NCBI GenBank assembly: GCA_046583095.1
Contig: JAYGDB010000008.1
Coordinates: 33,164 to 97,163 of the forward strand
From: Myxococcota bacterium
GTDB taxonomy: Bacteria > Myxococcota_A > UBA9160 > UBA4427
DNA: 64,000 nt
Direction of reading: 5' to 3'
Below are positions 10,674 through 31,226 of the stretch, one piece after another. The notes beneath the pieces are model-generated. The model saw only the letters and a list, made by a program, of their open reading frames with translations, was not told where the DNA came from and ran no database searches. Positions within the stretch are counted from its first letter, which is position 1. Each line of letters starts with the position of its first letter. A program made the translations under genes and the position numbers.

Positions 10674-13600
10674 ATGCGCGCCAGAAGTTTCGGGCTGCTG
10701 CTGCTGTGTTTCTTCCTGTCCGGGCTTGCGGCCCTGATCTATCAGACCGCCTGGACGCGACAGTTCGCGTTCGTCTTCGGTACGTCGGAGCTCGCCGTCG
10801 CCAGCGTGCTCGCCGCCTACATGGGGGGCCTGGCGTTGGGCGCTGCGGTTGCGGGACGCCTCGTCCCGCGCATCCGCAGGCCGATCCTGGTCTACGGGCT
10901 GTTGGAGCTGGCCATCGGCCTGACCGCGCTCGCGGTTCCCTGGGGTGTCTCCGCCGCGACACGTCTATACGTAGCCGTCTTCGGATCCCAGGGCGCACCC
11001 GCGGACGAGGGGGGGCTCCTGTCAGCGCTCTTCTACCTCGCGTGCTCGTTCGCGATCCTACTGATTCCCACATCGCTCATGGGCGCCACCCTGCCGTTGC
11101 TCGCGCGTCATGCCGTCCGGCGTGAAGAAGATATTGGGCGGCGTATCGCGCACCTCTACGCGACGAACACTGCGGGTGCAGTGGTGGGAACCGTCCTGAC
11201 GGCCTTCGTGCTCCTGCCCGCCTTCGGACTCGCCACGACCGTGTGGCTCGCCGTGGGGGTCAACCTGGCGGTGTTTGCAGCAGCGGCCGTTCTCGCGCGG
11301 GTGTCCCCGCCGGTCGCAGACTCGGCATGGACCCCTGCCAACGCTGACCCGCGCGATCCCAATCGCTGGGTGCTCCCCCTGATCGCGATCTCCGGCGCCG
11401 TCTCGTTCACCTACGAGGTTCTCTGGACGCGTCTTCTCGGCCACGTCCTGGGCGGCAGCGTGTATGCGTTCGCGACGATGCTCGCGACCTTTCTTCTCGG
11501 CATCGCCATCGGTTCCTGGCTGGCTTCCGGGCGCCTGGTCTCGGATCGGCGCACAGCGGCGACAGCCTTCGCCTGGGCCCAGGTGGGCGCGGGGCTGCTC
11601 TCTCTCGTGGCGTATCTCGGAATCGACTCCACGCCCGGCTGGGTGCAGAGCACGGCGCTCCGGAACGAGCTGCGACTGTTGTTGGATGCCGGCATCAGCG
11701 CCGCCATCCTGCTCCCCGGAACTCTCTGCATCGGCGCCACCTTCCCGCTGGCGGTTCGCGTTCTTGCGCGCAGCCAGGACGAGGCAAGCCAGGCGAGTGC
11801 CCGGGTGTATTCCTGGAATACCGTGGGCGCCATCACGGGAGCGGTGGGAGCCGGCTTCTTCCTGATTCCGGCGATCGGCTTCGCCTGGACCCTGGCCATC
11901 GCAGTCGCCACGAACGCGGGCCTTGCGGTGGCCGCGGGACTTCGGACGCGCCCCCGTCCCCGGCTCGCGATGGTCGGCGCGGCACTGGTCCTGGCGGCGC
12001 TCGTCATCACCCAACCGGGCCCTCCCTGGCAGGTCCTTCGCATGGGAGGCATCGCGTCCCGGGTGAAGCAGGCCAAGGTTGCCTACTACGGCGTCGGTCG
12101 CAGTGCGACGGTGCTGCTGCAGCATTCGTCCGAGGGCTGGCAGCTCAGCTCGAACGGGCTCGCCGAGGCCCAGATCACTCGCCCAGGGGTGCGAATCGGG
12201 CGCTACGTCATGGTGCAGTGGATGAGCAACCTGCCGGCTTGGGGACGACCCGACGCGAAGTCAATCCTCATCGTCGGCTTCGGAGGTGGGCTCATCGTCG
12301 CAGCGGTGCATCCGAATTTCGAGAAGATCGATGTGATCGAACTCGAGTCGAAGATGATCACCGCCAACGAGCTGATTGCCGACGAGCGGCTGAAGGATCC
12401 GCTCGCGGATCCCCGCGTCGAGCTCATCATCAACGATGCCCGCAGCGCCCTGCTCCTCACCCAGGAGCGCTACGACGCAATCGCCTCACAACCCTCTCAT
12501 CCCTGGACGGCCGCGGCCGCGCATCTCTACACCCGCGAATTCTTCCAGCTGGTCCGGGATCATCTGGCAGACGACGGCGTGTTCGTGCAGTGGATGGGGC
12601 TCAGCTTCATCGATGAAATGCTGTTCAAGACATTGATCGCGACGCTCCATGACGTCTTTCCTCACGTGCGTGTCTACCGTCCCTCTCGGGGCGGCCTGCT
12701 CTTCACGGCCTCGCCGATGCCCTTCGAGCCGGAGCACGAGGCCGGAGCGGTCCTCGCGGCGGCCCCCGAGCTGGCTAAAAAGCTCGGCGTGCGGGGCGGG
12801 GCGGACATCGTCGCGCACATGTTGCTCGACGATGACACGAGTCGCGCGTTCGCCCGCGGTGCACCGATCAACACCGACGATCGAAACATCCTCCAGATGA
12901 GGTCTCCGGCAATCGTGCGCGGAAAAAATCGCTTCAATCCGAAGGACGTAATCGGCCCGTTCGATCCACTCGCGGTCTCGGCGCTGGACTGGGATCGCAG
13001 CTACCTGATTCGAAGATTGCTCGCGACGGGGCTGGACGACCGAGCCAGGCGGATCAGCGACGCCGCGACGAATCCGGTCGAGCGCCACGTCGGCCAGGGC
13101 TTCCTGGCGCGCCGCAAGGGCGACCGCGGCAAGGCGATGCAGCACTTTCGGGCGGCTCTCGAACTCGATGCGAACAACGCGGAGGCGCGGATCGCGATCC
13201 TCGAGCTCTTCCGAAGCACGGGTGTGGCCGAAGCCGCGCTTGCCGAGAGGCTGAGGCAGGAGCTCACCCCTCTCGAAGAGAAGCTCGTCTCGGGATGGCT
13301 GCTCGAAAGAGAGAAGAAGTGGGATGAGTTGCGTGAGTTGGAGAACGACTTCCGGAGCGTGCTGCCCCAGCACCCCGCCTTCCCGGCGGCGGCGCGTCTG
13401 CGCGCCGCCTGGCGCCTCGGGGAGGCGTCGAAGAACCGCGCCGAGCAGGCGATGGCGATCCTCGACGAAGTCCTGCCCCTGACCGACTCACTCAACGATC
13501 TCGTCGCACGCGCCGAAGCGAGCGGACTCGCCGGCTACCCAACCGGCGCCAGCTCGACGATCTGGGAGCTGATCCGAAGGGCCGACTCCCGCCCCCGCGG

Positions 13601-13718
13601 CGAAATCCGGCCCACCCTCCGCCGCGCAATCGTCATGCTGAGCAAACTCCCCCCCTCGGCCCTGCTACCCGGAATCCGCAAGGGGCTCACCACGAAGCTG
13701 CGCCAGAAGCTCCGCTAG
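10674..13718 (+). CDS. Fused polytopic membrane / spermidine-synthase-like / TPR protein
   Basis: 1014 aa; N-terminus LLLLCFFLSGLAALIYQTAWTRQFAFVFGTSELAVASVLAAYMGGLALGA typical of fused MFS/spermidine-synthase proteins. Middle domain ILIVGFGGGLIVAAV...IDVIELESKMI...INDARSAL...ASQPSHPWTAAAAHLYTREFF; C-terminal TPR. Confidence 0.85.
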   Translation: MRARSFGLLLLCFFLSGLAALIYQTAWTRQFAFVFGTSELAVASVLAAYMGGLALGAAVAGRLVPRIRRPILVYGLLELAIGLTALAVPWGVSAATRLYVAVFGSQGAPADEGGLLSALFYLACSFAILLIPTSLMGATLPLLARHAVRREEDIGRRIAHLYATNTAGAVVGTVLTAFVLLPAFGLATTVWLAVGVNLAVFAAAAVLARVSPPVADSAWTPANADPRDPNRWVLPLIAISGAVSFTYEVLWTRLLGHVLGGSVYAFATMLATFLLGIAIGSWLASGRLVSDRRTAATAFAWAQVGAGLLSLVAYLGIDSTPGWVQSTALRNELRLLLDAGISAAILLPGTLCIGATFPLAVRVLARSQDEASQASARVYSWNTVGAITGAVGAGFFLIPAIGFAWTLAIAVATNAGLAVAAGLRTRPRPRLAMVGAALVLAALVITQPGPPWQVLRMGGIASRVKQAKVAYYGVGRSATVLLQHSSEGWQLSSNGLAEAQITRPGVRIGRYVMVQWMSNLPAWGRPDAKSILIVGFGGGLIVAAVHPNFEKIDVIELESKMITANELIADERLKDPLADPRVELIINDARSALLLTQERYDAIASQPSHPWTAAAAHLYTREFFQLVRDHLADDGVFVQWMGLSFIDEMLFKTLIATLHDVFPHVRVYRPSRGGLLFTASPMPFEPEHEAGAVLAAAPELAKKLGVRGGADIVAHMLLDDDTSRAFARGAPINTDDRNILQMRSPAIVRGKNRFNPKDVIGPFDPLAVSALDWDRSYLIRRLLATGLDDRARRISDAATNPVERHVGQGFLARRKGDRGKAMQHFRAALELDANNAEARIAILELFRSTGVAEAALAERLRQELTPLEEKLVSGWLLEREKKWDELRELENDFRSVLPQHPAFPAAARLRAAWRLGEASKNRAEQAMAILDEVLPLTDSLNDLVARAEASGLAGYPTGASSTIWELIRRADSRPRGEIRPTLRRAIVMLSKLPPSALLPGIRKGLTTKLRQKLR

Positions 13719-15493
13719 GGCTTCCGACTTTCCCGAAGGCGCGAGAAGCGGATCGCTCGCTCCACCTCGGCGAGATCGACTTCCAGGTTCGCGGTGATGG
13801 GACCCCCGCGCTCGATGGCACGGAGGATCGTGTCGCGTGCGGAGTCCAAGTCATCGAGAACCAGCTGCGCCTGGGCGATCAGCTGCAGCTCGTGCTGGGA
13901 CGGCGAGTCGTTGCGGGAGAGACGCTCGATCCACTCGCGCGCCCAACGCTGCTTGAGTTTCACGAAGGCCGGGTCACTCTGAATCGCCGCATAACCCGCC
14001 ATCAACAAGTGATCCAAGCGGTTGTAGCCCCGCCGGTGAGCCCGCTCGAGCAACTCGACGGCCGTGTCGGCATCGCCGGCCTGGGCGGCACGGGTTGCGT
14101 CCTGCGTCTTGGCCGCGACGCCTTCCGGGTAGTGCTTGACTGCGTCGGCCATCACGAGGGACGCTGAACGCCAGATCGTCGCCCGGTCGAAGCTTCGCGC
14201 GGCGAAGACCACGAGCAGCAGCGCAGCAGCGATCCGCAAGCCGCGCCGGAAGGCGTCCGGGTTGGCGAGCTTGCGGCTGGCAATCCACTCGTGACCGGCC
14301 AGCGCGACGCCCCCGATCAAGCCCGGCAGGATGAAATAGAGATAGCGATCGGCCAGTGGGAAGGGGAGGGGGATCACGCCGCAAACCGGGGCGAACGAGA
14401 CCAACGCAAAGATCCACCAAGCTGCCTCCGGGCGGCGGTTGCGCAGCATCGCGAAGGTGCGCCAGCCGACGGCGGCCAGAATCGGGAGCGACGCGAGCCA
14501 CCACGGATCCAGCCATCCCGCGGCGTCGGGCTCGTGAAAGGCCGAGAGGCCATAGGAGGTCGACGCCATCACGAGGTATCGCATGGCGACAGCGAGGATT
14601 CCGCGAATCCGATCGCCAAAGTCTGCGTAGAGGGTCGGCGCCTGGCCGGCCGTCTGCCCAAAGGCGAAGAATTCGGCGACCGCAAACAGCGCGAGGAGCA
14701 CCGCCCAGCCGGCCAGCCAACTCCACCTCCAGTCGATCTCGTCCTTCGAACGCGCCCAGCCCAGGGCAACCGCAAAGAAGAGCGCCACAGCGGCCGTCGG
14801 CTTCGCCATCAGGGCCAGCGCGAACAGCAGGGCTCCCCAGCCAGGGCGTCGCGGGTGCATGAGCAGTCCGGCGAGGCATAAGACCATCGCCGAGGACGTC
14901 TTCAACTGATTGATCCATGCGACGGCCTCGACGTTGCCCGGATGCACCAGGAAGAAAGCCCCACCGATCACCGCCGCCGTCGCGGAAATTCCCGTACGTC
15001 GGAAGAGCGACACGAGCAACAGCGACGCGACGACGTGCAGGAAGACATTCACGACGTGATAACCAGTGACGTTCGGCCCGAATACCTGCCATTCGAGGGC
15101 GTGCAGCAGGATGTGGACGGGTGCGTAGTTCTCGACAATCACCGCCAACACGCTCGTCGGGTCGAGGATCGCGATCACGTTCTCGGGGGTGAGATCGTGA
15201 ACGAAGACGTTCCGCTGGACGTAGTGCTCGTCATCGGAGATGAAGCTCCCACCGAGTGCGGGCCAGTAGACGAGCAGCGCGATGACCAGGAAGCCGACGA
15301 AGAGCAGCCGCGAATCGACTCCCGACGACGCAGCCGGACGCGTCTCCCCGGTCCTCCGCCTTCCCTGCGCGCTGGAACTGGAGCTGGAACGAGCCAGGGG
15401 TCGACCTACTCGGAAAAGCCGTCGGGCTTTCGCTGCAGGAAGTTCCAGGCATCCCCGATGATGTCCTCGAGAGATGTCCGGCGGGCCTCCCAC
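13715..15493 (-). CDS. TMTC/PMT-like GT-C membrane protein (DUF1736-type) with C-terminal TPR domain
   Basis: 592 aa; LLVYWPALGGSFISDDEHYVQRN..., YHVVNVFLHVVASLLL, FFLVHPGNVEAVAWINQLK match bacterial TMTC-like O-mannosyltransferase homologs; TPR tail. Only canonical start is GTG 15493, inside the galE 3' end. Confidence 0.75.
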   Translation of the reverse strand: MGGPPDISRGHHRGCLELPAAKARRLFRVGRPLARSSSSSSAQGRRRTGETRPAASSGVDSRLLFVGFLVIALLVYWPALGGSFISDDEHYVQRNVFVHDLTPENVIAILDPTSVLAVIVENYAPVHILLHALEWQVFGPNVTGYHVVNVFLHVVASLLLVSLFRRTGISATAAVIGGAFFLVHPGNVEAVAWINQLKTSSAMVLCLAGLLMHPRRPGWGALLFALALMAKPTAAVALFFAVALGWARSKDEIDWRWSWLAGWAVLLALFAVAEFFAFGQTAGQAPTLYADFGDRIRGILAVAMRYLVMASTSYGLSAFHEPDAAGWLDPWWLASLPILAAVGWRTFAMLRNRRPEAAWWIFALVSFAPVCGVIPLPFPLADRYLYFILPGLIGGVALAGHEWIASRKLANPDAFRRGLRIAAALLLVVFAARSFDRATIWRSASLVMADAVKHYPEGVAAKTQDATRAAQAGDADTAVELLERAHRRGYNRLDHLLMAGYAAIQSDPAFVKLKQRWAREWIERLSRNDSPSQHELQLIAQAQLVLDDLDSARDTILRAIERGGPITANLEVDLAEVERAIRFSRLRESRKP

Positions 15494-16404
15494 CCCAACA
15501 ATTCGCGAGCAAGAGTGCCGCCGCTCACGAGCCGGGGCGGGTCACCGCTGCGACGCCCGGTGACCACCTCGGGGATCGGGTGCCCCGTCACTCTTCGCGC
15601 CACCTCGATGACCTCGCGCACCGAGTAGCCGGCCCCCGTGCCCAGGTTGCAGGCGATCCGCGGGGTGCCGTCCTGTAGCAGCCTCAGCGCCCGGAGATGC
15701 GCATCCGCGAGGTCGTCAACGTGGATGTAGTCGCGAATGCACGTACCGTCGGGTGTGTCGTAGTCGTCGCCGTAGATCGAGATCGACTCCCGCTTGCCTA
15801 GCGCCACCTGCAGGACCAGGGGAATCAGGTGCGTCTCGGGATCGTGGTCCTCGCCAAGGCTCGAATCGAGCGCGGCGCCCGCGGCATTGAAGTAGCGCAG
15901 CGCCGCGACGCGGAACCCGTAGGCCCGCGCGTAGTCGTCCATCATGTGCTCCATGTGGAGCTTGGTACGCCCATAGGTGTTGATCGGGGCCTGCGGGTGC
16001 GAGTCCGAAATCGGGATCTCTATCGGGTCGCCGTAGGTCGCGCAGCTCGAGGAGAAGACGATTTCGACACAGCCCGCCGCGCGCATTTCCTCGAGCAGAT
16101 TGAAGGTGTAGAGGACGTTCTGCTCGTAGTACTTCGCCGGATTCTCCATGGACTCGCCGACCAGGGCCTTCGCGGCGAAATGGATCACCGAGCGCGGAGC
16201 ATGCTCGGAGAAAAGTCGGGCCAGCGCCTCACGATCCCGAAGGTTTCCCTTCACGAAGGGCACCGACACGGCCTCTCGATGCCCATCCGAGAGATCATCG
16301 AAGACCACGACCTCGATGTCTCGCTCCTGAAGGGACCGCACGCTGTGGCTGCCGATGTAGCCGGCACCTCCGACGACGACGACCGGTCCTTCCGGATGCT
16401 CCAT
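15406..16404 (-). CDS. galE: UDP-glucose 4-epimerase
   Basis: Track ORF trimmed to ATG 16404 (MEHPEGPVVVVGGAGYIGSH), preceded by GGAGG. YGRTKLHME (YxxxK); overall GalE-like sequence. Confidence 0.9.
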   Translation of the reverse strand: MEHPEGPVVVVGGAGYIGSHSVRSLQERDIEVVVFDDLSDGHREAVSVPFVKGNLRDREALARLFSEHAPRSVIHFAAKALVGESMENPAKYYEQNVLYTFNLLEEMRAAGCVEIVFSSSCATYGDPIEIPISDSHPQAPINTYGRTKLHMEHMMDDYARAYGFRVAALRYFNAAGAALDSSLGEDHDPETHLIPLVLQVALGKRESISIYGDDYDTPDGTCIRDYIHVDDLADAHLRALRLLQDGTPRIACNLGTGAGYSVREVIEVARRVTGHPIPEVVTGRRSGDPPRLVSGGTLARELLGWEARRTSLEDIIGDAWNFLQRKPDGFSE

Positions 16405-16462
16405 CTCTCTGCCTCCAACGTTCGGGTCCGGAGCATACAGAAGTCGACTCGCGGGGAGACCG

Positions 16463-16729
16463 TTGTACCCTGAGTCGATGCAAACCGAGCCGCTCGAACT
16501 CTCGGTGGTGACGCCCTGTCTCGACGAGGCGGACACCCTGGGCATCGGCTTGATCGGCATCGCCGCTCGAAAGTGGCAGCTCGAGGGCTTCGGCCCCCTC
16601 GATTACGCGCAGACGATGCGCTGGGTGATCCCGGGCGTCACGCTCGCGGCCGTCGGCTTCCAGACCCTTCTCTCGGGTTGGTTCGTCAGCATCCTGGGGA
16701 TGAACCGCGTGGAGATGAAGAGCAGGTGA
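16463..16729 (+). pseudogene. GT2 glycosyltransferase remnant with in-frame loss of the catalytic domain
   Basis: 83-88 aa (ATG 16478 or TTG 16463). The N-terminus LELSVVTPCLDEADTLG is the first strand/helix of a GT-A fold. It joins directly to a C-terminal TM tail GFGPLDYAQTMRWVIPGVTLAAVGFQTLLSGWFVSILGM. Confidence 0.55.
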
Positions 16730-17334
16730 AGCTGGCGGAACGCCTGCACGAAGCCTCCGGCGGCGCGCGACGTCTCGAGGCCCTGAGCGAGCACGTGGGA
16801 GCGCTGCTGCCGGAGGGCGCGAAGGTGCTCGACGTCGGCTGCGGCGACGGCATGCTCGACGAGCGGATCCAGCAGCGCCATTCGCATCTCGAGATCACCG
16901 GGATCGACGTTCTCGTGCGGCCGGAGGCGCGTATCCCGGTGAGGTTGTTCGACGGACGCACGATCCCGCATGCGGAAGACAGCTTCGACGCGGTGCTCCT
17001 GATCGACGTCCTCCATCACTGTGACGATCCGGAGGCGATGCTCGCCGAGGCGATCCGCGTCGCACGCCGCTGCATCGTCCTCAAGGATCACATCCTGAGC
17101 GGTCCGCTCTCGGGTGCGCTTCTCCGCATCATGGATGACATCGGCAACCGCCGCTTCGGCGTGGCCCTGCCGCACAAGTACTGGAGCGAGGCGCGTTGGC
17201 AGCAGACATTCGAGCGGCTGGGTCTTCCTGTCGAGGCCTGGATCACGGATCTCGGTCTCTACCCCGGCCCCCTGGATTGGATCTTCGGGCGGTCACTGCA
17301 CTTCGTGACGCGCCTCGGGATCTCATCTGAATGA
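16726..17334 (+). CDS. Class I SAM-dependent methyltransferase
   Basis: Track ORF trimmed to GTG 16726 (GTGA overlap with the remnant stop). VLDVGCGDGMLDE motif I, DAVLLIDVLHHCDDP. Confidence 0.8.
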   Translation: MKLAERLHEASGGARRLEALSEHVGALLPEGAKVLDVGCGDGMLDERIQQRHSHLEITGIDVLVRPEARIPVRLFDGRTIPHAEDSFDAVLLIDVLHHCDDPEAMLAEAIRVARRCIVLKDHILSGPLSGALLRIMDDIGNRRFGVALPHKYWSEARWQQTFERLGLPVEAWITDLGLYPGPLDWIFGRSLHFVTRLGISSE

Positions 17335-18968
17335 TCCGCTCCCCCACGGCGCGGGTCTTCGCAGGCTGGCTGCTGCTCTCGGCCATCGTGCTCGGCATCG
17401 AAGCGCCGCCGGCTGGCGAGCCGGGCCTCTACTACGACGAGGCGTTCCTCGCCCAGCAAGGTCGGGATTTTCTCGAGCCTGATCGCCTCACCCGGCACCC
17501 GCCTGGCACATCGTCAACCTACGTCCTGGGCCGGCGTTTTCCCCTGAGCAACTCCAGCTATCTCGGCTCGCTCAAGAGCCAGCTTCTGATTCCGCCCCTC
17601 GCACTCTTCGGGGCGAGCGTCACGACCCTCCGGATAGCGACGCTATCTACCGCCCTGATCGCCCTGCTGTTCACGCTGCTCTGGGCGCGCCGGATCTTCG
17701 GGACCCCGCAGGCCCTGGCAACCGGAGCCCTGGTGGCCCTCGATCCCAGCTTCGTCTTTTTCGGGGCGTGCGAGTGGGGTCCGTACACGACGATGCTCCT
17801 GTGCCGGAGCATCGGCCTATACAGCTTGACGGTTGGCTGGCAGAGGCGACGAACGGGACTTCTCGTGTTGGGCGGACTCGCGCTTGGCCTCGGGGTCTAC
17901 GCCCGGGCCGACTTCGTGATCATCGGGATCGCCTCGGCTGTCGGACTCGTCGCAGCGCGCGGCCGGCACCTCCTGCGCGAGGTTCGGGAGCGTCCCCTGC
18001 CGATCGCGGCGGCGCTCACGGCAGTCGTGGTGGGCGCGATCCCAATGCTGATCGGGGCGCAGGACCTGCTGGCCACCCAGGCGGGCATCGCCGATCGGGG
18101 CGATCTCGTCTATCGGCTTCAGGTCTTGTGGAGCACTCTCGACGGCTCCCACTTCCATCGTGTCATGCACACCGGCGGGATCTTCGAGCGTATCTTCGAC
18201 GCCCCGGGCCCGGCCAGCCTCTTCGGGCTCGCGACCGCCGCAGCCGTGGGCGTCGCAGCGGGCACGCTGTTGCGGCAGTCCGAGCCGCGCATCACGTTCC
18301 TGCTCGTCACCGTCGTCGTGCTCGGGGTGGCGATGGTCCTGCTACCGGGCGCCGTTCGAGCGCATCATATGTTGAACTTGCTGCCGTTCACGCACCTCCT
18401 GGTCGCCGCAGTCGGGACTCACCTAGCCGGCACGCGGGGCGCTCGGATCGCGGCCAGTGTCGCGCTCGTCCTCGTGCTCGCGAGCGAAGCCCGCGTAACG
18501 TGGCAGACCCGAGAGGAGATCGCCGAGACTGGCGGTCGCGGGCGCTGGTCGAACTCACTCGACGCATTCGCCGCCGAGATCGGGACCGATCCGGACGCAG
18601 TCGCGGTCTCCCTCGACTGGGGGTTTCACGAGCCGCTGCTGTTCCTGACGACGAAGCAGAGCTTGATCGAGCCCATCTGGACGATTCCACAGCTCCTCCG
18701 ATTGGGCCGCAGCTGGATTCACCCGGGCGACGCGAACCACCGCTACCTCGTCCGCGAAGTTCCGTACGATCTCTTCCGACTCGGCCCGAAGCTCCTGGCC
18801 ACGGCCCGCGAGCTCGGGCCGGACCTCGCCGAGATCCGGACCCACACCGACCGACGGGGAGACGTCGCGTTCTATAGCGTTCGCTTCACCGCGCCTCACC
18901 AACTCGTCTTTTCGGGCGAGTTCGAGGTCCGCTTTCAGGGAGAAAGACAACCGAGGAGGCCTCGATGA
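17331..18968 (+). CDS. GT39/ArnT-like (PMT_2-type) GT-C membrane protein
   Basis: 545 aa, polytopic; first loop GEPGLYYDEAFLAQQG; ATGA overlap with the methyltransferase. Confidence 0.7.
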   Translation: MIRSPTARVFAGWLLLSAIVLGIEAPPAGEPGLYYDEAFLAQQGRDFLEPDRLTRHPPGTSSTYVLGRRFPLSNSSYLGSLKSQLLIPPLALFGASVTTLRIATLSTALIALLFTLLWARRIFGTPQALATGALVALDPSFVFFGACEWGPYTTMLLCRSIGLYSLTVGWQRRRTGLLVLGGLALGLGVYARADFVIIGIASAVGLVAARGRHLLREVRERPLPIAAALTAVVVGAIPMLIGAQDLLATQAGIADRGDLVYRLQVLWSTLDGSHFHRVMHTGGIFERIFDAPGPASLFGLATAAAVGVAAGTLLRQSEPRITFLLVTVVVLGVAMVLLPGAVRAHHMLNLLPFTHLLVAAVGTHLAGTRGARIAASVALVLVLASEARVTWQTREEIAETGGRGRWSNSLDAFAAEIGTDPDAVAVSLDWGFHEPLLFLTTKQSLIEPIWTIPQLLRLGRSWIHPGDANHRYLVREVPYDLFRLGPKLLATARELGPDLAEIRTHTDRRGDVAFYSVRFTAPHQLVFSGEFEVRFQGERQPRRPR

Positions 18969-19699
18969 TCGAGAAGATTTGCAACGTCCGGACCGCCGAC
19001 GGCGAAATGGAGACCTTCACGGCGCGCCCCGCCGGCGATGGCCCGTTTCCGGCGGTCGTGCTCTACATGGACGCTCCGGGAATCCGGGGGGAGCTCTACG
19101 ATTTCGGACGCCGGATCGCCGGAGAGGGCTACTACGCCCTGGTTCCGGACCTCTACTACCGGCGCGGCCGTGTACGGCTCGATATGACCCTCCGAGGGGC
19201 CCGAAAAGTGATGTACGGCCACATGGAGAGCCTCTCGAATGCCCGCGTAGCGGCCGATACCGAGGCGCTATTCGAGCTTCTGGCGGACGAGCCCAGCGCC
19301 GCCTCGGGCCCGAAGGGTTGCATCGGCCACTGCATGAGCGGGCAGTTCATCGCCACGGTTGCAGGCACCTTCCCGGACCACTTTCGCGCATCGGTCTCGT
19401 GCTACGGCGTACGCATCGTGACCGACGAACCCGACAGTCCCCACAACCTGCTTGCTCAAGCGCAGGGAGAAATCTTCTTCGCCTTCGCGGAGCGGGACGA
19501 TCACGTGCCGGACGCCGCGATCCAGGTACTGCGCGATACCCTCGAAGAGGCCTCGGTCGAGAGTGTGGTGGAAGTCTATCCGAACACCGAGCACGGCTTC
19601 TGCTTCCCGGAGCGGAAACAGGTCTATGCCCCGGCCGCGGCCGAAGACGTGTGGAAGCGCAGCTTCGAGATGTTCCAGAGACAGCTGCGTCGGAGCTAG
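18965..19699 (+). CDS. Dienelactone hydrolase family protein
   Basis: 244 aa; DGPFPAVVLYMDAPGIRGEL, GCIGHCMSGQF nucleophile elbow, NTEHGF; ATGA overlap with the upstream gene. Confidence 0.85.
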   Translation: MIEKICNVRTADGEMETFTARPAGDGPFPAVVLYMDAPGIRGELYDFGRRIAGEGYYALVPDLYYRRGRVRLDMTLRGARKVMYGHMESLSNARVAADTEALFELLADEPSAASGPKGCIGHCMSGQFIATVAGTFPDHFRASVSCYGVRIVTDEPDSPHNLLAQAQGEIFFAFAERDDHVPDAAIQVLRDTLEEASVESVVEVYPNTEHGFCFPERKQVYAPAAAEDVWKRSFEMFQRQLRRS

Positions 19700-19724
19700 C
19701 TGCCGAAGCTGGCGCTTCACCCGA

Positions 19725-21920
19725 CTAGGAGTCGGATAGAACCACCACCCGTCCTTCCTGCACGTCCGCCTCGCTCACCGCGACGGCGTGTACCTCATCG
19801 CCGATCCGCACGCGATACGGCCCTTCCGAGGCCACTGCCTCTTCGTGGAGGGGTGGCCCAGTCGCGTACGGGACTCGCAGCCGGGCCACGCCGTCCGCGC
19901 CCGCGGTCGCATTCGACTCGTAGTCGATCCGACGACCCGAGGGCGAAGCCAGGCGAAGCGTGACGATCACGACTTCACCTTCCGTCGCCCGGACCTCGAG
20001 CATCGCACCTTCGACTCTCTCGAAGAGCTTGTAGGGCAGCGTCGCTGACCCCGTCACGCGCTGGCCCGACAACTGGAAGGAGCGGGCGAAGTGCACGCCA
20101 CGCTCCGGCCCCTCCGCGACGAGTCGGAAGTTCTCGCTTGCGGGGAAGCGCACCACTGCGGTGCCGTCCGCATGGTGCAGCCAACCCTCGACGGTATCCG
20201 GATCGGCGCTCGAGAAGGTGATCACGTACCGCGCCTTCAGCTGTCTTGCGAGGGCGACGGCCCTGGATTCGGAGGAAGCCCCCAGGAGTTGGAACGCCGC
20301 GTTCCAGTTTTCCAAACCGATGAAGGCCCAGAACGGATCCGTCGGCGTCGGGCGGCGAGCGACGTTCTGGATCGCATGTCCCAGGTTCGCGTGTGCGACC
20401 ACGCCGTACTCGGGGGCCTGTCGGATGTCGAAAGAGCCTGACGTCTCGGGCGTAACCCTCCGCACTCGCTGCATGAAACGTGTGAGGCTCCCAGCGACAG
20501 TGAGGAGCGCCCGGTCGCGGCCCGCGAGTTCGCCCCGCCACACACGCAGGGCGCTGCCCAACCGCGGTGCCATCTGCAGTGCGATCGGAGGCGCGAGCAG
20601 GACGAGCCCGATCCCCACGCAGGCCGAGACGACTGCGAGTCGGGAGCCACCGGCCCAAGCCGCGAGACGCCGTCCCACTGCGGCAATCACGATCGCGAAG
20701 CCCACCGCCGCCGCGGGACCGAGATCGTTTCCGTACCGGCGCTGCACGAGGGCGAGCGCACCGAACCAGAAGCACCAGGCTGCAACCACCCAACCGATCG
20801 CACGCGTTTCCTTCGGGCATGCCCACAGGACCGCGAAGGGCAGTACCGGAATCAGGTATCCGAACAACCCCCAGACCTGCCAGACCGGCCGACCCGTCGC
20901 GCGCCCGAAGATGGCGAAGAGCGGAAGCTGCTCCCCGGTTCGCAACCCGACTCCGTCGCTCATGGTGAGGAAGCGCAGCGCCGGCTCGAGGCCCTCGCGA
21001 ATCGCGGGAAGCAGCAGCGCGAGACCGACCGCGGCCAGGCCGAAGCCGGCCGTCCAACCGAGACGCACGAGCGGAGGGCGTTGGCGGCCGCTCCCTTCAA
21101 GCCACCACATCCCGGCCGAGACGATCGCGACGAGAAGTACGGCCAGCACATGGAGTCGGGAGAGCGCGATCGCCGACCAGGCGCCGCCGAGCGGCTCGGG
21201 GAAGAACCAGACGAGCGGCGCCAATACGACCCCGGTCGCGAAGGCGCTCGTCGCCTGCACCCGGTAGAGATCCCGACGACCCGTGCACGCCGCCGCCAGC
21301 CAAAGGATGCCCTCGACGAGTGCGAGATAGAGAAGGCTACCGTGCCAGGTGAGGAGCATCGCGAGGCGGCCCGCAGACAGACCGACACCCAATCGCGCCG
21401 GAACTCCCTCGCTCGAAACCAGGCGTGCAACGACCCACAGCAAACACGCGCCGATGAAAGCCACTGCGCAGTGATGGTCGAGTTGTCCGACACGGCTGTA
21501 GTTGACGTGGATCGGCAGTAGCGCGAGGAATGCAGCGGCACCCACGCCCACGCCGGGACCCCCGATGCGGCACCCGAGCGCATACACGGGCAACAGGGTT
21601 GCGGCGCCGATGAACGCAGGCACCCAGGCCGCGAACACCTCGAAGCCGTGCGGGTCAGCAGCCAGGACCCGCCCGAGGGCGGCAACCGTGAAGTCGAAGA
21701 GCGGAGGCCAGGAGATCGCCGCCCCTCCCGGGTAGTTGATATACGGGTCCGAGAAGAGAATCGTTGGAAAATTCACCCAGGCGTAGAGAGCCCGGCGAAC
21801 GTGGTACTGGGCGTCTCCCGGCGCGAAGACCACCGTCTCGCCATCGATGAAGACCCACTCGAAGCCGAGGGCCCGCAGGCCGAGGGCCAGCAGGAGGGCC
21901 GCTCCCAGCCAGGTCTTCAA
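19725..21920 (-). CDS. AglB/STT3-family oligosaccharyltransferase homolog with divergent WWDYG motif
   Basis: 731 aa, TTG start in a TTGA overlap. GDAQYHVRR, SDPYINYPGGAAISWPPLFD, VGQLDHHCAV and RTGEQLPL align with AglB EL1, DxH and EL5 motifs as I recall them. The WWDYGHWI position reads AHANLGHAI; KARYVITF follows. Confidence 0.75.
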   Translation of the reverse strand: MKTWLGAALLLALGLRALGFEWVFIDGETVVFAPGDAQYHVRRALYAWVNFPTILFSDPYINYPGGAAISWPPLFDFTVAALGRVLAADPHGFEVFAAWVPAFIGAATLLPVYALGCRIGGPGVGVGAAAFLALLPIHVNYSRVGQLDHHCAVAFIGACLLWVVARLVSSEGVPARLGVGLSAGRLAMLLTWHGSLLYLALVEGILWLAAACTGRRDLYRVQATSAFATGVVLAPLVWFFPEPLGGAWSAIALSRLHVLAVLLVAIVSAGMWWLEGSGRQRPPLVRLGWTAGFGLAAVGLALLLPAIREGLEPALRFLTMSDGVGLRTGEQLPLFAIFGRATGRPVWQVWGLFGYLIPVLPFAVLWACPKETRAIGWVVAAWCFWFGALALVQRRYGNDLGPAAAVGFAIVIAAVGRRLAAWAGGSRLAVVSACVGIGLVLLAPPIALQMAPRLGSALRVWRGELAGRDRALLTVAGSLTRFMQRVRRVTPETSGSFDIRQAPEYGVVAHANLGHAIQNVARRPTPTDPFWAFIGLENWNAAFQLLGASSESRAVALARQLKARYVITFSSADPDTVEGWLHHADGTAVVRFPASENFRLVAEGPERGVHFARSFQLSGQRVTGSATLPYKLFERVEGAMLEVRATEGEVVIVTLRLASPSGRRIDYESNATAGADGVARLRVPYATGPPLHEEAVASEGPYRVRIGDEVHAVAVSEADVQEGRVVVLSDS

Positions 21921-23014
21921 GCGCCCTCGAGCAACGACGCCAAGACCGATACGACGTGCTCCTGCTGGTCCGGACGGATCCCCGGATAGATCGGAAGCGA
22001 GAGCAATTCGCCGGCCGCGCGCTCGGCCACGGGGAAGTCGCCGAGACTGTGGCCCAGGTGCTGGAAAGCCCCCTGCAAGTGGATGGGCCGCGGATAGTGG
22101 ATCCCGGCTCCGATTCCCGCTCCGTTCAGTCCAACCAGCAGCCGATCGCGCTCGGGAACGCGAATCGTATACAGGTGCCAGACGTGGGCGTTGCCCTCGA
22201 GGGTCTGGGGCAGGACGACATCGGGAACGCCGCTGAGCAACTCGTCATAACGGCGCGCCGCTTCCGCGCGATGTTCGTTCCAGGCGTCGAGCTTTCGCAG
22301 CTTGGCTCGCAGCACGACCGCCTGCAGGGTATCGAGCCGCGAGTTGAAACCCTGTTCGGGGTGATGGTACTTCTTCTCGCTTCCGTACTGGCCCAGGCTG
22401 CGAACTCGCGCGGCCAGGTCCGGGTCGTCGGTGACGACCGCACCGGCGTCACCGTAGGCGCCGAGGTTCTTGCCGGGAAAGAAGCTCGTCCCGGCCACCA
22501 CCCCGAATGAACCCGAGAGCCGACCCTTCCGGCGCGCGCCCTGGGACTGCGCGGCGTCCTCGATGAGCGGCACGCTTGCGTCGGCAAGGGCCTCGAAAGC
22601 GGCGACCTGGCCGAAGAGGTTGACGGGCATGATCGCGCGGGTCTTGGGACCGACCCGACTCAAGGCCGAGGCGCTGTCGAGAAGGTGCGTGGCCGGATCC
22701 GAGTCGACGAGCACCGGCGTCGCACCCGTGCGCGCAATGGCGAGCGCCGAGGCGATGAAGGTGTTCGCAGGAACCACCACCTCGTCGCCGGGCCCGATGT
22801 CGAGTGCGCGACAGGCCAGCTCGAGAGCATCCGTTCCGTTCCCGACGCCGATGCAATGACCGACTCCGGACGCCACCGCGAACTCCTCCTCGAAGGCGCG
22901 CACGTCCGGCCCTTGGATGAAGGCGGTGCTCTCGATCACCCGTTCGAGGCCGGCCTTCACCTCGGCGGCGATTTCTCGATGCTGCCAGGCGAGATCGACG
23001 AGCGGAATCTCCAT
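21917..23014 (-). CDS. DegT/DnrJ/EryC1/StrS-family PLP-dependent nucleotide-sugar aminotransferase
   Basis: 365 aa; MEIPLVDLAWQHREIAAEVKAGLERVIESTAFIQGPDVRAFEEEFA...GNGTDALELA...VPANTFIASA; family-typical sequence. Confidence 0.9.
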   Translation of the reverse strand: MEIPLVDLAWQHREIAAEVKAGLERVIESTAFIQGPDVRAFEEEFAVASGVGHCIGVGNGTDALELACRALDIGPGDEVVVPANTFIASALAIARTGATPVLVDSDPATHLLDSASALSRVGPKTRAIMPVNLFGQVAAFEALADASVPLIEDAAQSQGARRKGRLSGSFGVVAGTSFFPGKNLGAYGDAGAVVTDDPDLAARVRSLGQYGSEKKYHHPEQGFNSRLDTLQAVVLRAKLRKLDAWNEHRAEAARRYDELLSGVPDVVLPQTLEGNAHVWHLYTIRVPERDRLLVGLNGAGIGAGIHYPRPIHLQGAFQHLGHSLGDFPVAERAAGELLSLPIYPGIRPDQQEHVVSVLASLLEGA

Positions 23015-24048
23015 CAGCGCCGGTCTCCCCCCACGCGCACCTCACGTCCCCCCTCGGCGATCGATCGGCTGATGGCATCCAGGGTGCGGACGACGGCAAG
23101 CCCTTCACGTCCGTCGGTGATCGGCACGCCGCCGCTCTCGATGCAGTCGAGGAAGTGATCGCATTCGTTGCGCAGGGGCTGGCTTGCGGGGACCTTCGGA
23201 ACGCTGATGTCGCCATCGCGCACGACCATCCGGAACGTCGCGAAGGAGTCGACGAGCGCGGGATGGCTGCGCTCCTCGGACACCTGCTTGTCGTAGATTC
23301 GCAGGGGCTCGGTCAGGCTGATGTCATCGAAGGTGAGCATCCGCTTCTCACCGACCACGGTGATGTCCCGGGTCTTGCGCGGGTGCAGCCAGGACGCGTG
23401 GAGGTGAACGAGCACGTCATTCGGATACTGGAGGGTCGCAAAGACCGCGTCCTCGACGCCGGGATTGATCCAGGCCGTCCCCCTCGCCGAGACGCTCTCG
23501 GGCTGCGCGTCGAGCCAGTAGCTCGCGAGGGCGATGTCGTGGGATGCCAGATCCCACGCGGCGTTCACGTCCACTCGGATCGGCCCGAGGTTCGTGCGCG
23601 TCATCGAGATGTAGTAGATGCGTCCGAGGTCACCGTCGACCAGATAGCGCTTGGCCTGCTGGGAGGCCGCGTTGAAGACGAAGACGTGGCCGACCATCAG
23701 GATGCGGGCACTGCGCTCCGCGATCTCACACAGAGCCTCGGCGTCGCGAACGCTGTCGGCCATCGGCTTCTCGACCAGCACGTGTCTACCAGCCTCGAGC
23801 GCCTGCCGGGCCAAATCGAAGTGGGTGCTCGTGGGGGTCGCGATCACGACGGCATCAACGGAAGCATCGCCGAATGCGTGGGTGGCATCGTCGCTCACGC
23901 GGATGTCGGGAAAGCGGAGCCCGACGGCCTGCCGGCGGCTGGCATCGCGATCGATCACCCAGGCCACCTCGCTGCGCTGGCGGTCGTGGAAATTCGCGAT
24001 GAGGTTCGGGCCCCAGTGTCCGGCACCGATCACAGCGACGCGGATCAT
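23014..24048 (-). CDS. Gfo/Idh/MocA-family NAD-dependent oxidoreductase (WbpB/GnnA-like nucleotide-sugar dehydrogenase)
   Basis: Track ORF trimmed to ATG 24048 (MIRVAVIGAGHWGPNLIANF) with a GAGAGGA-like RBS. Rossmann N-terminus, EKPMA motif. Confidence 0.85.
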   Translation of the reverse strand: MIRVAVIGAGHWGPNLIANFHDRQRSEVAWVIDRDASRRQAVGLRFPDIRVSDDATHAFGDASVDAVVIATPTSTHFDLARQALEAGRHVLVEKPMADSVRDAEALCEIAERSARILMVGHVFVFNAASQQAKRYLVDGDLGRIYYISMTRTNLGPIRVDVNAAWDLASHDIALASYWLDAQPESVSARGTAWINPGVEDAVFATLQYPNDVLVHLHASWLHPRKTRDITVVGEKRMLTFDDISLTEPLRIYDKQVSEERSHPALVDSFATFRMVVRDGDISVPKVPASQPLRNECDHFLDCIESGGVPITDGREGLAVVRTLDAISRSIAEGGREVRVGGDRR

Positions 24049-24071
24049 GGGTTCCTCTCGATCGGTCGGGC

Positions 24072-24794
24072 TCACTTCTTGAGACGAAGTCCGACGAGCA
24101 GGACCGGCTTCAGGATCGACCACCATCCGACGATCGGCTTCATCTTGGTCTGCCCGATGCGCTTCGGAGGGTAGACCTTCGAAACCGGCTCTTCCAGCGT
24201 GCGATGGCCGAGCTGGATGGCCCGGATGTAGAGGTACGGCTCGAGCGCGTACTCGTCGAGCCACGCTTGATCGAGGTCGAGGCGTTCGTCTTCGAGCACC
24301 CGGCGGTGGACCGCCCGGAAGCCGTTGGTGGACTCCGTCACGCGCCGGCCCGTCACCAGCGAGAAGAGGAGGGGATGGATGCGCGTCGCGATCTTGCGGT
24401 AAAAGGGCATCTCGCCGAAGTCAGCACCCGGCTCGAGAAAGCGCGAGCCCTGAACGAAGTCCGCGCGCCCCTCCGCGATTGGATCCAGGAGGCGCGGGAT
24501 TTCCTCCGGCGAATCCTTGTTGTTCCCCGCCATCACGACCGCGACGTCGTAGCCGCCGCGAAGTGCCTCGGCATAACCGACCCGAAGTGCGGCACCGACC
24601 CCCGCGACGCGTCCCATCGAGATCACCCGTGCACCGCCTTCCCGCGCGACCTCGGCCGATCGGTCCGTCGACCCGTCGTCGATGACGAGCAGGTCGTCGA
24701 CGACGTCTCGAGGAGTACGACGCACGACCTCGCCGATCTTCACCTCCTCGTCGAGAACGGGAGCCATCGCGATCACCCGTAGGCCGCGGTACAC
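24072..24794 (-). CDS. GT2 glycosyltransferase, polyprenol-phosphate sugar synthase type
   Basis: 240 aa, GTG start 3 nt after the upstream stop. VIAMAPVLDEEVKIGEVV, LLVIDDGSTDRS, VVMAGNNKDSPEE, FVQGSRF. Confidence 0.85.
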   Translation of the reverse strand: MYRGLRVIAMAPVLDEEVKIGEVVRRTPRDVVDDLLVIDDGSTDRSAEVAREGGARVISMGRVAGVGAALRVGYAEALRGGYDVAVVMAGNNKDSPEEIPRLLDPIAEGRADFVQGSRFLEPGADFGEMPFYRKIATRIHPLLFSLVTGRRVTESTNGFRAVHRRVLEDERLDLDQAWLDEYALEPYLYIRAIQLGHRTLEEPVSKVYPPKRIGQTKMKPIVGWWSILKPVLLVGLRLKK

Positions 24795-30260: not shown

Positions 30261-31226
30261 ATGATCGCCGTCGTCATTCCCTGCTACCGGGTGAAGAGCC
30301 GGATCCTCGACGTCGTGTCCGGGATCGGCCCCGAGTGCCAGGCCATCTACGTGGTCGACGACGGCTGCCCGGAGGGCAGCGGCGACCACGTCGAGGCCGA
30401 ATGCCGGGACCCTCGGGTCCACGTCCTGCGGCACGAGAGAAACCAGGGAGTCGGTGCCGCCACCCTCACTGGCTACCAGGCCGCGCTCGACGGGGGCGCT
30501 GCGGTGATCGTCAAGCTCGACGGCGACGGGCAGATGGATCCCACATGGATCCCGCGCCTGGTGCGGCCCATCCAGGACGGCGAAGCCGACTACGTGAAGG
30601 GAAACCGCTTCTTCGACCTGGGCGATCTCGGTGCAATGCCGCGCGCGCGCGTGCTCGGCAATTCGCTCCTCTCGTTCGCCAGCAAGCTCTCGAGCGGATA
30701 CTGGAACGTCTTCGATCCGACGAACGGCTTCACAGCCATCCACGCCGCGGTGGCCCGCCGGCTTCCCCTTGCAAAGCTCTCGAAGGGCTACTTCTTCGAA
30801 TCGGACCTGCTCTTCCGCCTCGGCATCCTCCGCGCCGTGGTCTGCGAGGTTCCGATGCCCGCCGTCTACCAGGATGAGCCCAGCAGCCTGGTGATCCGAC
30901 GGGTGATCTTCCAGTTCGCAGGTAGGCACTTCGTCAACACCTTCAAGCGGATCTTCTACAGCTATTACCTGCGCAACTTCAACATCGCCTCGATCGAGAT
31001 CCTGGCCGGCCTGGCCTTCCTCGCTTTCGGTGTGTGGTTCGGCACTTCCGAGTGGATCGACGGCATCCGAGCGAACGTTCCCGCCACCAGTGGCACCGTG
31101 ATGGTCGCAGCCCTGCCCGTGATCGTCGGAGTTCAGCTCATCCTCGCGTTCCTGAGCTACGACCTGCAGAACGTGCCCCGCGAGATCCTGCATCGGCGTC
31201 TGGAGCCCGCGCCGTCGAAGGTTTGA
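30261..31226 (+). CDS. GT2 glycosyltransferase with C-terminal TM helices (GtrB/ArnC/DPM1-like polyprenol-phosphate glycosyltransferase)
   Basis: 321 aa; MIAVVIPCYRV, IYVVDDGCPEGSG, NQGVGAATLTGY, KLDGDGQMDP, DYVKGNRF; two C-terminal TM segments; GAGGA RBS. Confidence 0.85.
   Translation: MIAVVIPCYRVKSRILDVVSGIGPECQAIYVVDDGCPEGSGDHVEAECRDPRVHVLRHERNQGVGAATLTGYQAALDGGAAVIVKLDGDGQMDPTWIPRLVRPIQDGEADYVKGNRFFDLGDLGAMPRARVLGNSLLSFASKLSSGYWNVFDPTNGFTAIHAAVARRLPLAKLSKGYFFESDLLFRLGILRAVVCEVPMPAVYQDEPSSLVIRRVIFQFAGRHFVNTFKRIFYSYYLRNFNIASIEILAGLAFLAFGVWFGTSEWIDGIRANVPATSGTVMVAALPVIVGVQLILAFLSYDLQNVPREILHRRLEPAPSKV

Follow-up and report, generated by a model that had tools for sequence, protein, structure and literature searches.

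Is the open reading frame (ORF) of 83 codons that heads a four-gene chain in a Myxococcota genome a small protein in its own right, or is it what remains of a much larger enzyme? The ORF lies in a stretch of 64,000 nucleotides from assembly GCA_046583095.1 (contig JAYGDB010000008.1, positions 33,164 to 97,163, forward strand), which as a whole is called here the window and whose positions are used throughout. The ORF, referred to as the stub, is followed by genes for a methyltransferase (MT), a PMT_2-family glycosyltransferase of the GT-C type and a dienelactone-hydrolase (DLH) family protein. A first-pass annotation of the sequence had described the stub as the beginning of a GT-A fold joined to a C-terminal membrane tail, with ~300 residues of a GT2 glycosyltransferase missing in between. 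With high confidence we consider that the observations, taken as a whole, are best explained if the stub is the dead relic of a GT2 of ~390 residues after one in-frame deletion of 310 codons, and 'pseudogene relic' is the annotation that we recommend for it. Its parts are as follows (TM, transmembrane helix).

16478..16729, + strand: GT2 deletion relic (the stub); ATG at 16478 gives 83 codons, the alternative TTG at 16463 gives 88
16478..16543, + strand: N-terminal relic of the stub; first GT-A beta-strand and the next loop, MQTEPLELSVVTPCLDEADTLG
16538..16546, + strand: deletion junction; codons L21-G22-I23, CTG GGC ATC
16544..16729, + strand: C-terminal relic of the stub; second half of TM3, GFGPLDY loop, TM4 and the tail NRVEMKSR

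The stub as two ends of one GT2

Related loci were collected by a scan with the PMT_2 protein, keeping one genome per species, which gave 22 loci, nearly all of them in metagenome-assembled genomes (MAGs) of Myxococcota or 'Deltaproteobacteria'. At 14 related loci, residues ~2-22 and ~21-77 of the stub match one and the same GT2 ORF, in the same frame and ~925 nt apart, and each of these ORFs is located directly upstream of MT and PMT_2 orthologues. The full-length GT2 has a total of ~390 residues, 388 of them counted to the end from a point 12 residues ahead of the PCL motif at 14 of 14 loci, and the gap of the stub against it is exactly 310 residues (930 bp), again at all 14, such that the stub consists of the first ~21 and the last ~61 residues of its parent. 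The N-terminal relic is 72-81% identical to the N-termini of the full-length orthologues, in the same frame, and the C-terminal relic is 62-79% identical to their C-termini. The two-part make-up proposed in the first-pass annotation is thus borne out by both halves falling in one frame of one GT2 at 14 loci, and the ~300 residues it had given become a measured 310. It had also proposed an alignment with full-length GT2 relatives and a comparison of synteny; the former places the junction at codons 21-23, and the latter finds a full-length GT2 in the place of the stub at 14 related loci, where the order galE (reverse), GT2, MT and PMT_2 (forward) recurs and orthology by position holds.

The orthologues indicate what kind of enzyme was lost. 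They combine the GT-A domain PF00535 (1.5e-25) with four hydrophobic segments, and their best relatives of solved structure are the P. furiosus dolichol-phosphate mannose synthase (PfDPMS, 5mlz, 2.2e-11), followed by ArnC and GtrB; the GT-A domain is common to all of them (E 2e-11 to 8e-6). As in PfDPMS, four hydrophobic helices stand at the C-terminus of the orthologues, and in the alignment of the orthologue with PDB sequences the MQTEPLELSVVTPCLDEADTLG region faces 'KVSVIIPTYNERENL' of PfDPMS, such that the first 21 residues of the stub correspond to beta-strand 1 and the loop after it. The NCBIfam profiles for AglJ and dolichyl-phosphate hexose transferases match the orthologue below their cut-offs, all equivalog scores remaining far below. 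By these comparisons the parent was a membrane-anchored GT2 of the polyprenyl-phosphate sugar synthase type, with a Glycos_transf_2 domain followed by a four-helix GT2_TM_C domain.

Aligned with this parent, the stub has lost all of the GT-A domain beyond its N-terminal piece, including the DNGS and GDADDSY (DXD) motifs, as well as the amphipathic region with the interface helices, the whole of TM1 and TM2, and TM3 in its first half. Still present are MQTEPLELSVVTPCLDEADTLG, IGLIGIAARKW (TM3, second half), an invariant loop (GFGPLDY), TM4 and the tail. The phrase 'C-terminal membrane tail' therefore describes the membrane end correctly and falls short of its extent, since this end comprises TM4 and a 5-residue extension as well as half of TM3 and the GFGPLDY loop. 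TM4 is one probable TM helix, with a best 19-residue hydropathy of 1.55 at residues 54-74. Only ~13 residues of the PF00535 domain remain, and the stub does not match it, whereas the orthologue L024 scores 1.5e-25; GDADDSY falls inside the 310-residue gap, leaving no DXD motif. Unlike PfDPMS, ArnC and GtrB, the stub is devoid of a catalytic domain and of 3.5 of the 4 helices. Because the DXD motif, the catalytic domain, TM1, TM2 and half of TM3 are deleted, the stub cannot make a lipid-linked sugar. Neither the stub nor its short homologues gave a local Pfam match, even at E<=10; its match to PF26629 (GT2_TM_C) is found only in precomputed annotations, with the last helix and half of TM3 set against the four hydrophobic segments of the orthologue. 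The 5-residue C-terminal extension is common only to the stub lineage and the related locus L003. This extension is polymorphic (16706-16723, 'RVEMKS'): allele P0220 ends in ..GMNSR, having lost 15 nt in frame and so returned to the length typical of the family.

Origin of the deletion and selection after it

At the codon level, in comparison with the 14 orthologues and L003, the residues L21-G22-I23 can be read as belonging to either flank, the N-side being DTL(G/A)(T/I)CI and the C-side ..ALG L(V/G)LI... It is a reasonable inference that the deletion probably took place through a short CTGGGC-like repeat at both ends, which would involve slippage or a microhomology-mediated route.

The identical ungapped allele is present in 12 further DNA sequences (L026, L001, L002 and L036-L044) with 97.0-99.7% nucleotide identity to the window. 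They come from separate samples and assemblers (NCBI, ENA, JGI) and differ from one another at the strain level around the junction. The junction reads DTLGIGLIG in every one of the 18 distinct alleles of the 90% protein cluster, and a scan of metagenomes with the MT returned a single close locus, L026. Outside this population, L003 is the nearest relative; it is 79% identical to the C-terminus of the stub and 72-76% identical in the MT, and retains sequence upstream of the breakpoint, from the TM3 region that the stub has lost (..RFFELVNLERGLLAGFGSLALGLVLISVAGREW..). Since L003 keeps the deleted region and the junction is common to the whole population, the deletion was fixed in one species-level population and postdates the split from L003. 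The loss was thus rightly called recent, fixed as it is within a population of 97-99.7% identity. The proposal of an in-frame deletion that preserves the GTGA overlap with the MT gene also agrees with our results: native start and stop are kept, and the overlap itself is ancestral, the GT2 of most relatives ending in ..cggcGGTGA.

Relocation of the deleted segment within the window was rejected, as a tblastn search of the 64 kb with full-length orthologues for the missing 930 bp found only paralogues of 27-34% identity. Insertion of a mobile element creating the full-length form and programmed variation were also considered, and no support was found for either.

We then asked which genes of the locus remained under selection once the deletion was in place. 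Variant codons were counted in 12 population sequences projected onto the window (13 sequences in total, all of which carry the deletion), and the ratios of non-synonymous to synonymous changes (NS:S) were compared with the pooled flanking genes (NS:S 39:52). Each line gives NS:S, the per-site ratio and, where calculated, p against the flanks.

Stub: 10:2, ~1.6, p=0.012
MT: 23:11, 0.70, p=0.016
PMT_2: 10:19, 0.20
DLH: 3:5, 0.19
galE: 10:11, 0.30
592-aa gene: 7:8, 0.31
AglB-like: 5:5, 0.37

The density of variants in the stub (12 in 249 sites) is close to the synonymous density of galE (11 in 248), which is the neutral expectation. The stub drifts like neutral DNA, as a pseudogene under relaxed selection does, in what is a small sample, and some of its alleles carry changes at residues that are invariant in the family (LDY to RAY, QT to QP). 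PMT_2 and DLH, on the other hand, are under purifying selection. Because all the compared sequences carry the deletion, this purifying selection on PMT_2 and DLH postdates the death of the synthase, and the GT-C enzyme is still used.

The MT had been called intact, which is true of its reading frame; its constraint appears relaxed (23:11 against 39:52, p=0.016). The enzyme keeps 22 of 22 family-invariant residues, and a test for decay at these sites found no private change, so that it is not yet visibly damaged. Its constraint is probably relaxed, and recently if the effect is real, the population NS:S being the sole pointer to it. Two sequences carry unusual MT alleles. The MT of L001 (1378-1977) stops three codons early, abolishing the ATGA overlap with PMT_2, and that of L038 has a compensated pair of an insertion and a deletion 2 nt apart, near window position 17115.

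Possible translational coupling and the rival explanations

The chain downstream of the stub is arranged with three overlaps, and both these and the ORF positions are as the first-pass annotation gave them when compared with the ORF list and the raw sequence.

16726..16729, + strand: GTGA overlap; stub stop (TGA, 16727-16729) over the MT start codon (GTG, 16726)
16726..17334, + strand: class I S-adenosylmethionine-dependent methyltransferase (MT), 202 aa; Pfam Methyltransf_11 3.7e-13, ORF intact
17331-17334, + strand: ATGA overlap of MT and PMT_2
17331..18968, + strand: PMT_2-family GT-C glycosyltransferase, 545 aa, multi-TM by hydropathy; PF13231 1.6e-10, above cut-off
18965-18968, + strand: ATGA overlap of PMT_2 and DLH
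18965..19699, + strand: DLH family protein; PF01738 1.2e-39

No Shine-Dalgarno sequence was found at a useful distance before the GTG of the MT or the ATG of PMT_2, whereas GAGGAGG (18953-18959) precedes the start of DLH by 5 nt. Experiments in which 4-nt overlaps gave tight termination-reinitiation coupling, abolished by a spacing of ~20 nt, come from E. coli and Haloferax (Huber et al. 2023, PMC10666635). The GTGA, ATGA and ATGA links of the stub, MT, PMT_2 and DLH are like those of such coupled pairs; unlike them, the first ORF of the chain is here a pseudogene relic, and its coupling is read from the sequence. The relic would still be translated, its 4-nt overlaps passing ribosomes to the MT gene and then to the GT-C gene. 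The position of the stub is well suited to feeding ribosomes into the chain, and a deletion out of frame might have had polar effects. Retention of the stub for translational coupling, as had been suggested, is plausible and compatible with the missing Shine-Dalgarno sites, the data having no power on selection for an open frame; we infer that the coupling is a property passively inherited by the relic and not a demonstrated reason for its retention.

Several points weigh against the reading of the stub as a dead relic in a coupled chain. Its translation and coupling are deduced from the arrangement of the ORFs. The NS:S counts are based on few variants, 12 of them in the stub, and sequencing errors may account for some singletons; of the 34 variants in the MT, 7 fall in the last 45 nt of contig L002, and without these 7 the MT has p=0.047. 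In addition, it would take the ancestral sequence to fix the exact breakpoint and the microhomology, and a second full-length GT2 copy could exist outside the 64-kb window.

Whether short relatives form a protein family of their own bears directly on the nature of the stub. The first homologue search returned only proteins of 55-145 aa with PF26629 (GT2_TM_C), which on the surface looked like a widespread and conserved small protein, the finding that, according to the first-pass annotation, would speak against a deletion. An exhaustive search of representatives gave 343 relatives; among the best 150, almost all match only residues ~20-77 of the stub, and the lengths in this search are dominated by fragments, which makes them unusable as evidence for a small-protein family. 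Genomic context was checked for six short relatives besides the stub cluster: three are split full-length genes, two are other deletion stubs and one is possibly a chimera. Of the split genes, P0015 and P0067 have a Glycos_transf_2 piece called directly upstream, and in P0066 the GT2 reading frame continues upstream across a frameshift (tblastn); all three are on long contigs of long-read style, MT matches follow the GT2 in each, and P0015 is followed downstream by a PMT_2 gene. Others in the first list of matches resemble contig-end fragments, judging from sequence and contig extent. On long contigs, GT2_TM_C-only entries of 60-90 aa proved to be pieces of full-length GT2 genes produced by gene calling (L030 3040-4204, L031 3021-3853 and L032 3026-4264); L030 and L031 are split by frameshifts, and the GT2 matches of L032 are in a single reading frame.

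The two other stubs are independent in-frame events. P0076 (L033 796-1110) joins orthologue residues 4-51 to 347-389, and P0159 (L034 1322-1549) joins residues 2-51 to 357-389, the N-side break lying right after 'ADNGSxD' in both. The L033 stub overlaps, by ATGA, the start of a multi-TM gene of 611 aa that gave no Pfam match. The GT2 gene was thus gutted more than once. Since detection by protein similarity sees in-frame relics only, the frame of the L033 and L034 stubs is uninformative on selection. The possibly chimeric hybrid is P0069, on the 672-nt contig L035 with 2.7x coverage.

A genuine small membrane protein of 83 aa with a function of its own, perhaps partnering the GT-C enzyme as a single-pass protein, could be imagined from the many database proteins of 55-145 aa that carry GT2_TM_C alone, from the probable TM helix that the stub has kept and from its fixation in a widespread population. 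The six short relatives examined in context nevertheless turned out to be split genes, stubs or a possible chimera, and others look like contig-end fragments; the architecture of the stub is confined to one cluster of at least 89% identity, its NS:S is 10:2, residues invariant in the parent are changed in some alleles (LDY to RAY, QT to QP) and TM3 is cut in half. We consider such a protein very improbable, and the widespread conserved short homologues that would have indicated it were not encountered among the cases examined. For annotation this carries a warning, as in the inspected cases GT2_TM_C-only database 'proteins' are fragments or relics. Even less credible, to the point of being nearly negligible, is an artefact of assembly or sequencing, that is, a collapsed or chimeric contig: the window does come from a MAG, and the hybrid 'stub' of L035 (672 nt, 2.7x) may be chimeric, but 13 DNA sequences, which come from independent samples and assemblers, carry the identical junction with strain-level differences nearby.

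A reading that deserves more attention, although we regard it as rather unlikely, is that the stub, and perhaps the MT too, is kept open and translated because reinitiation at GTGA and then ATGA brings ribosomes to the GT-C gene, such that selection acts on translation and not on the peptide. It would account for an in-frame deletion in which the start and the overlapping stop both survive, for MT and PMT_2 starts that have no Shine-Dalgarno site while DLH has GAGGAGG, and for amino acids that drift while internal stops and frameshifts are absent from all the sequenced alleles; PMT_2 has been under purifying selection since the deletion, the independent L033 stub also keeps an ATGA overlap with a downstream membrane-protein gene, and coupling works only where genes overlap or lie very close together (PMC10666635). 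However, chance alone gives an in-frame outcome in 1 of 3 cases, stubs found by protein similarity can only be in-frame relics, and a neutral ORF of 252 nt is usually still open at 1-3% divergence. Furthermore, the third independent stub, L034, sits 115 nt from the next gene, and PMT_2 can evolve its own initiation, as it stands without an upstream ORF in L004 and L005. The wider version, in which the stub and increasingly the MT are 'relay ORFs' with dispensable products, whose translation is the sole route of ribosomes to a still essential GT-C gene, L033 and L034 being recurrent outcomes of the same process, appears slightly more doubtful. If it were true, the fate of a dead gene in a tightly coupled operon would be shortening in frame and not removal, and the locus would offer a testable example of selection on translation shaping the decay of pseudogenes inside operons.

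The glycosylation module in relatives and in known systems

With the stub taken as a dead relic, the question is how the GT-C enzyme obtains its donor. A GT2 synthase beside a GT-C transferase, an arrangement of the three-component Gtr/Arn/Ppm-Pmt type, is the ancestral state at 14 loci, and in the window the synthase is dead. The GT-C enzyme may now draw its lipid-linked donor from another PfDPMS-like GT2, of which there are two within the window.

24072..24794, - strand: soluble PfDPMS/AglJ-like GT2, 240 aa; PDB 5mlz 3.5e-11; candidate substitute donor synthase
30261..31226, + strand: PfDPMS/ArnC-like GT2, 321 aa; PDB 5mlz 1.6e-10, PF00535 4.6e-20; candidate substitute donor synthase

The 240-aa GT2 is 72-90% identical across the related loci, and its matches to the AglJ and dolichyl-phosphate hexose transferase profiles are below cut-offs; the 321-aa GT2 has two C-terminal TM helices (240-263 and 273-303). 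Given two PfDPMS-like paralogues in the window and purifying selection on PMT_2, reliance on another GT2, as the first-pass annotation had suggested, is plausible. Its label 'GT39-like' for the PMT_2 protein holds at the level of the PMT_2/GT-C group, where PF13231 (1.6e-10) was the only match; PF02366 (PMT) was absent at E<=0.01, and a PDB sequence search with the protein found no significant relative.

The clade has the gene order 592-aa membrane protein (reverse), galE (reverse, in some loci), GT2, MT and PMT_2 (all forward), then AglB-like oligosaccharyltransferase, aminotransferase, oxidoreductase and 240-aa GT2 (all reverse). L004 (4250-6001) and L005 (4179-6001) have the PMT_2 of highest identity to that of the window (59-66%) and a 240-aa GT2 ~90% identical. 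Both are without galE, GT2 and MT, and have kept PMT_2, directly abutted by the 592-aa gene. By this comparison, the GT2 was lost at least 2 times in the subclade, the MT going along with it and the GT-C gene staying. L005 has frame breaks in PMT_2 and in the aminotransferase gene that resemble long-read indel errors.

The gtr family II operons of Salmonella (gtrA-gtrB-gtrC) carry a conserved deletion of gtrB (Davies et al. 2013, PMC3688519). As in the window, the GT2 polyprenyl-phosphate sugar synthase of a periplasmic glycosylation module of GT2 and GT-C genes carries a deletion while the GT-C partner is intact, and other donor synthases elsewhere in the genome may supply the donor (PMC3688519). 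Unlike the Salmonella case, the window belongs to marine-type Myxococcota MAGs and an MT lies between the GT2 and GT-C genes; the deletion in the window is mapped to 310 codons, in frame, with the 4-nt overlap kept, and a sister lineage is without both GT2 and MT. It is the same kind of event in another phylum and module, to which the present analysis adds mapping at the codon level and population evidence for each partner. The locus offers a snapshot of the decay of a glycosylation module: the donor synthase dies first by one in-frame deletion, the MT would then lose constraint, and the GT-C transferase stays, its donor presumably coming from a paralogous synthase, the sister lineage representing the end state with both genes gone. 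The decay of a single gene inside an operon still in use is ordinary, and here it is cleanly documented.

Upstream of the stub lie the following.

15406..16404, - strand: galE-like NAD-dependent epimerase, divergent from the stub; Pfam Epimerase 2.3e-60
16405..16477, no strand: divergent intergenic region; presumed operon promoter and stub ribosome-binding site, GGGGAG at 16453-16458

In the same divergent position, galE is intact in 7 related loci and represented by a fragmentary match in L006. The intergenic region differs at 0-3 positions from L026, L001 and L002; no sigma-70 consensus promoter was found in 16300-19900, a scan that is uninformative for this phylum.

At the other end of the chain, DLH was found among the related loci only in the species of the window, plus L005 at 40% identity; it has a strong Shine-Dalgarno site to itself and gives the impression of having joined the operon later. 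Beyond it, on the reverse strand, an AglB/STT3-like oligosaccharyltransferase gene (19725-21920) matches AglB_L1 (4.5e-17) and, below cut-off, the archaeosortase-A-associated STT3 profile (6e-71). It is clustered with the aminotransferase, the oxidoreductase and the 240-aa DPMS-like GT2 (21917-24794, - strand) and adjoins PMT_2 in ~18 Myxococcota MAG loci, the whole resembling an archaeal-style N-glycosylation cluster in bacteria. On the galE side, the 592-aa protein (13715-15493, - strand) has at least 6 TM segments and no Pfam or NCBIfam match, and is conserved in most related loci. Adjoining its gene, 10674-13718 (+ strand) encodes a 1014-aa fusion of MFS-like membrane and spermidine-synthase-like domains, with a weak sub-threshold TPR match.

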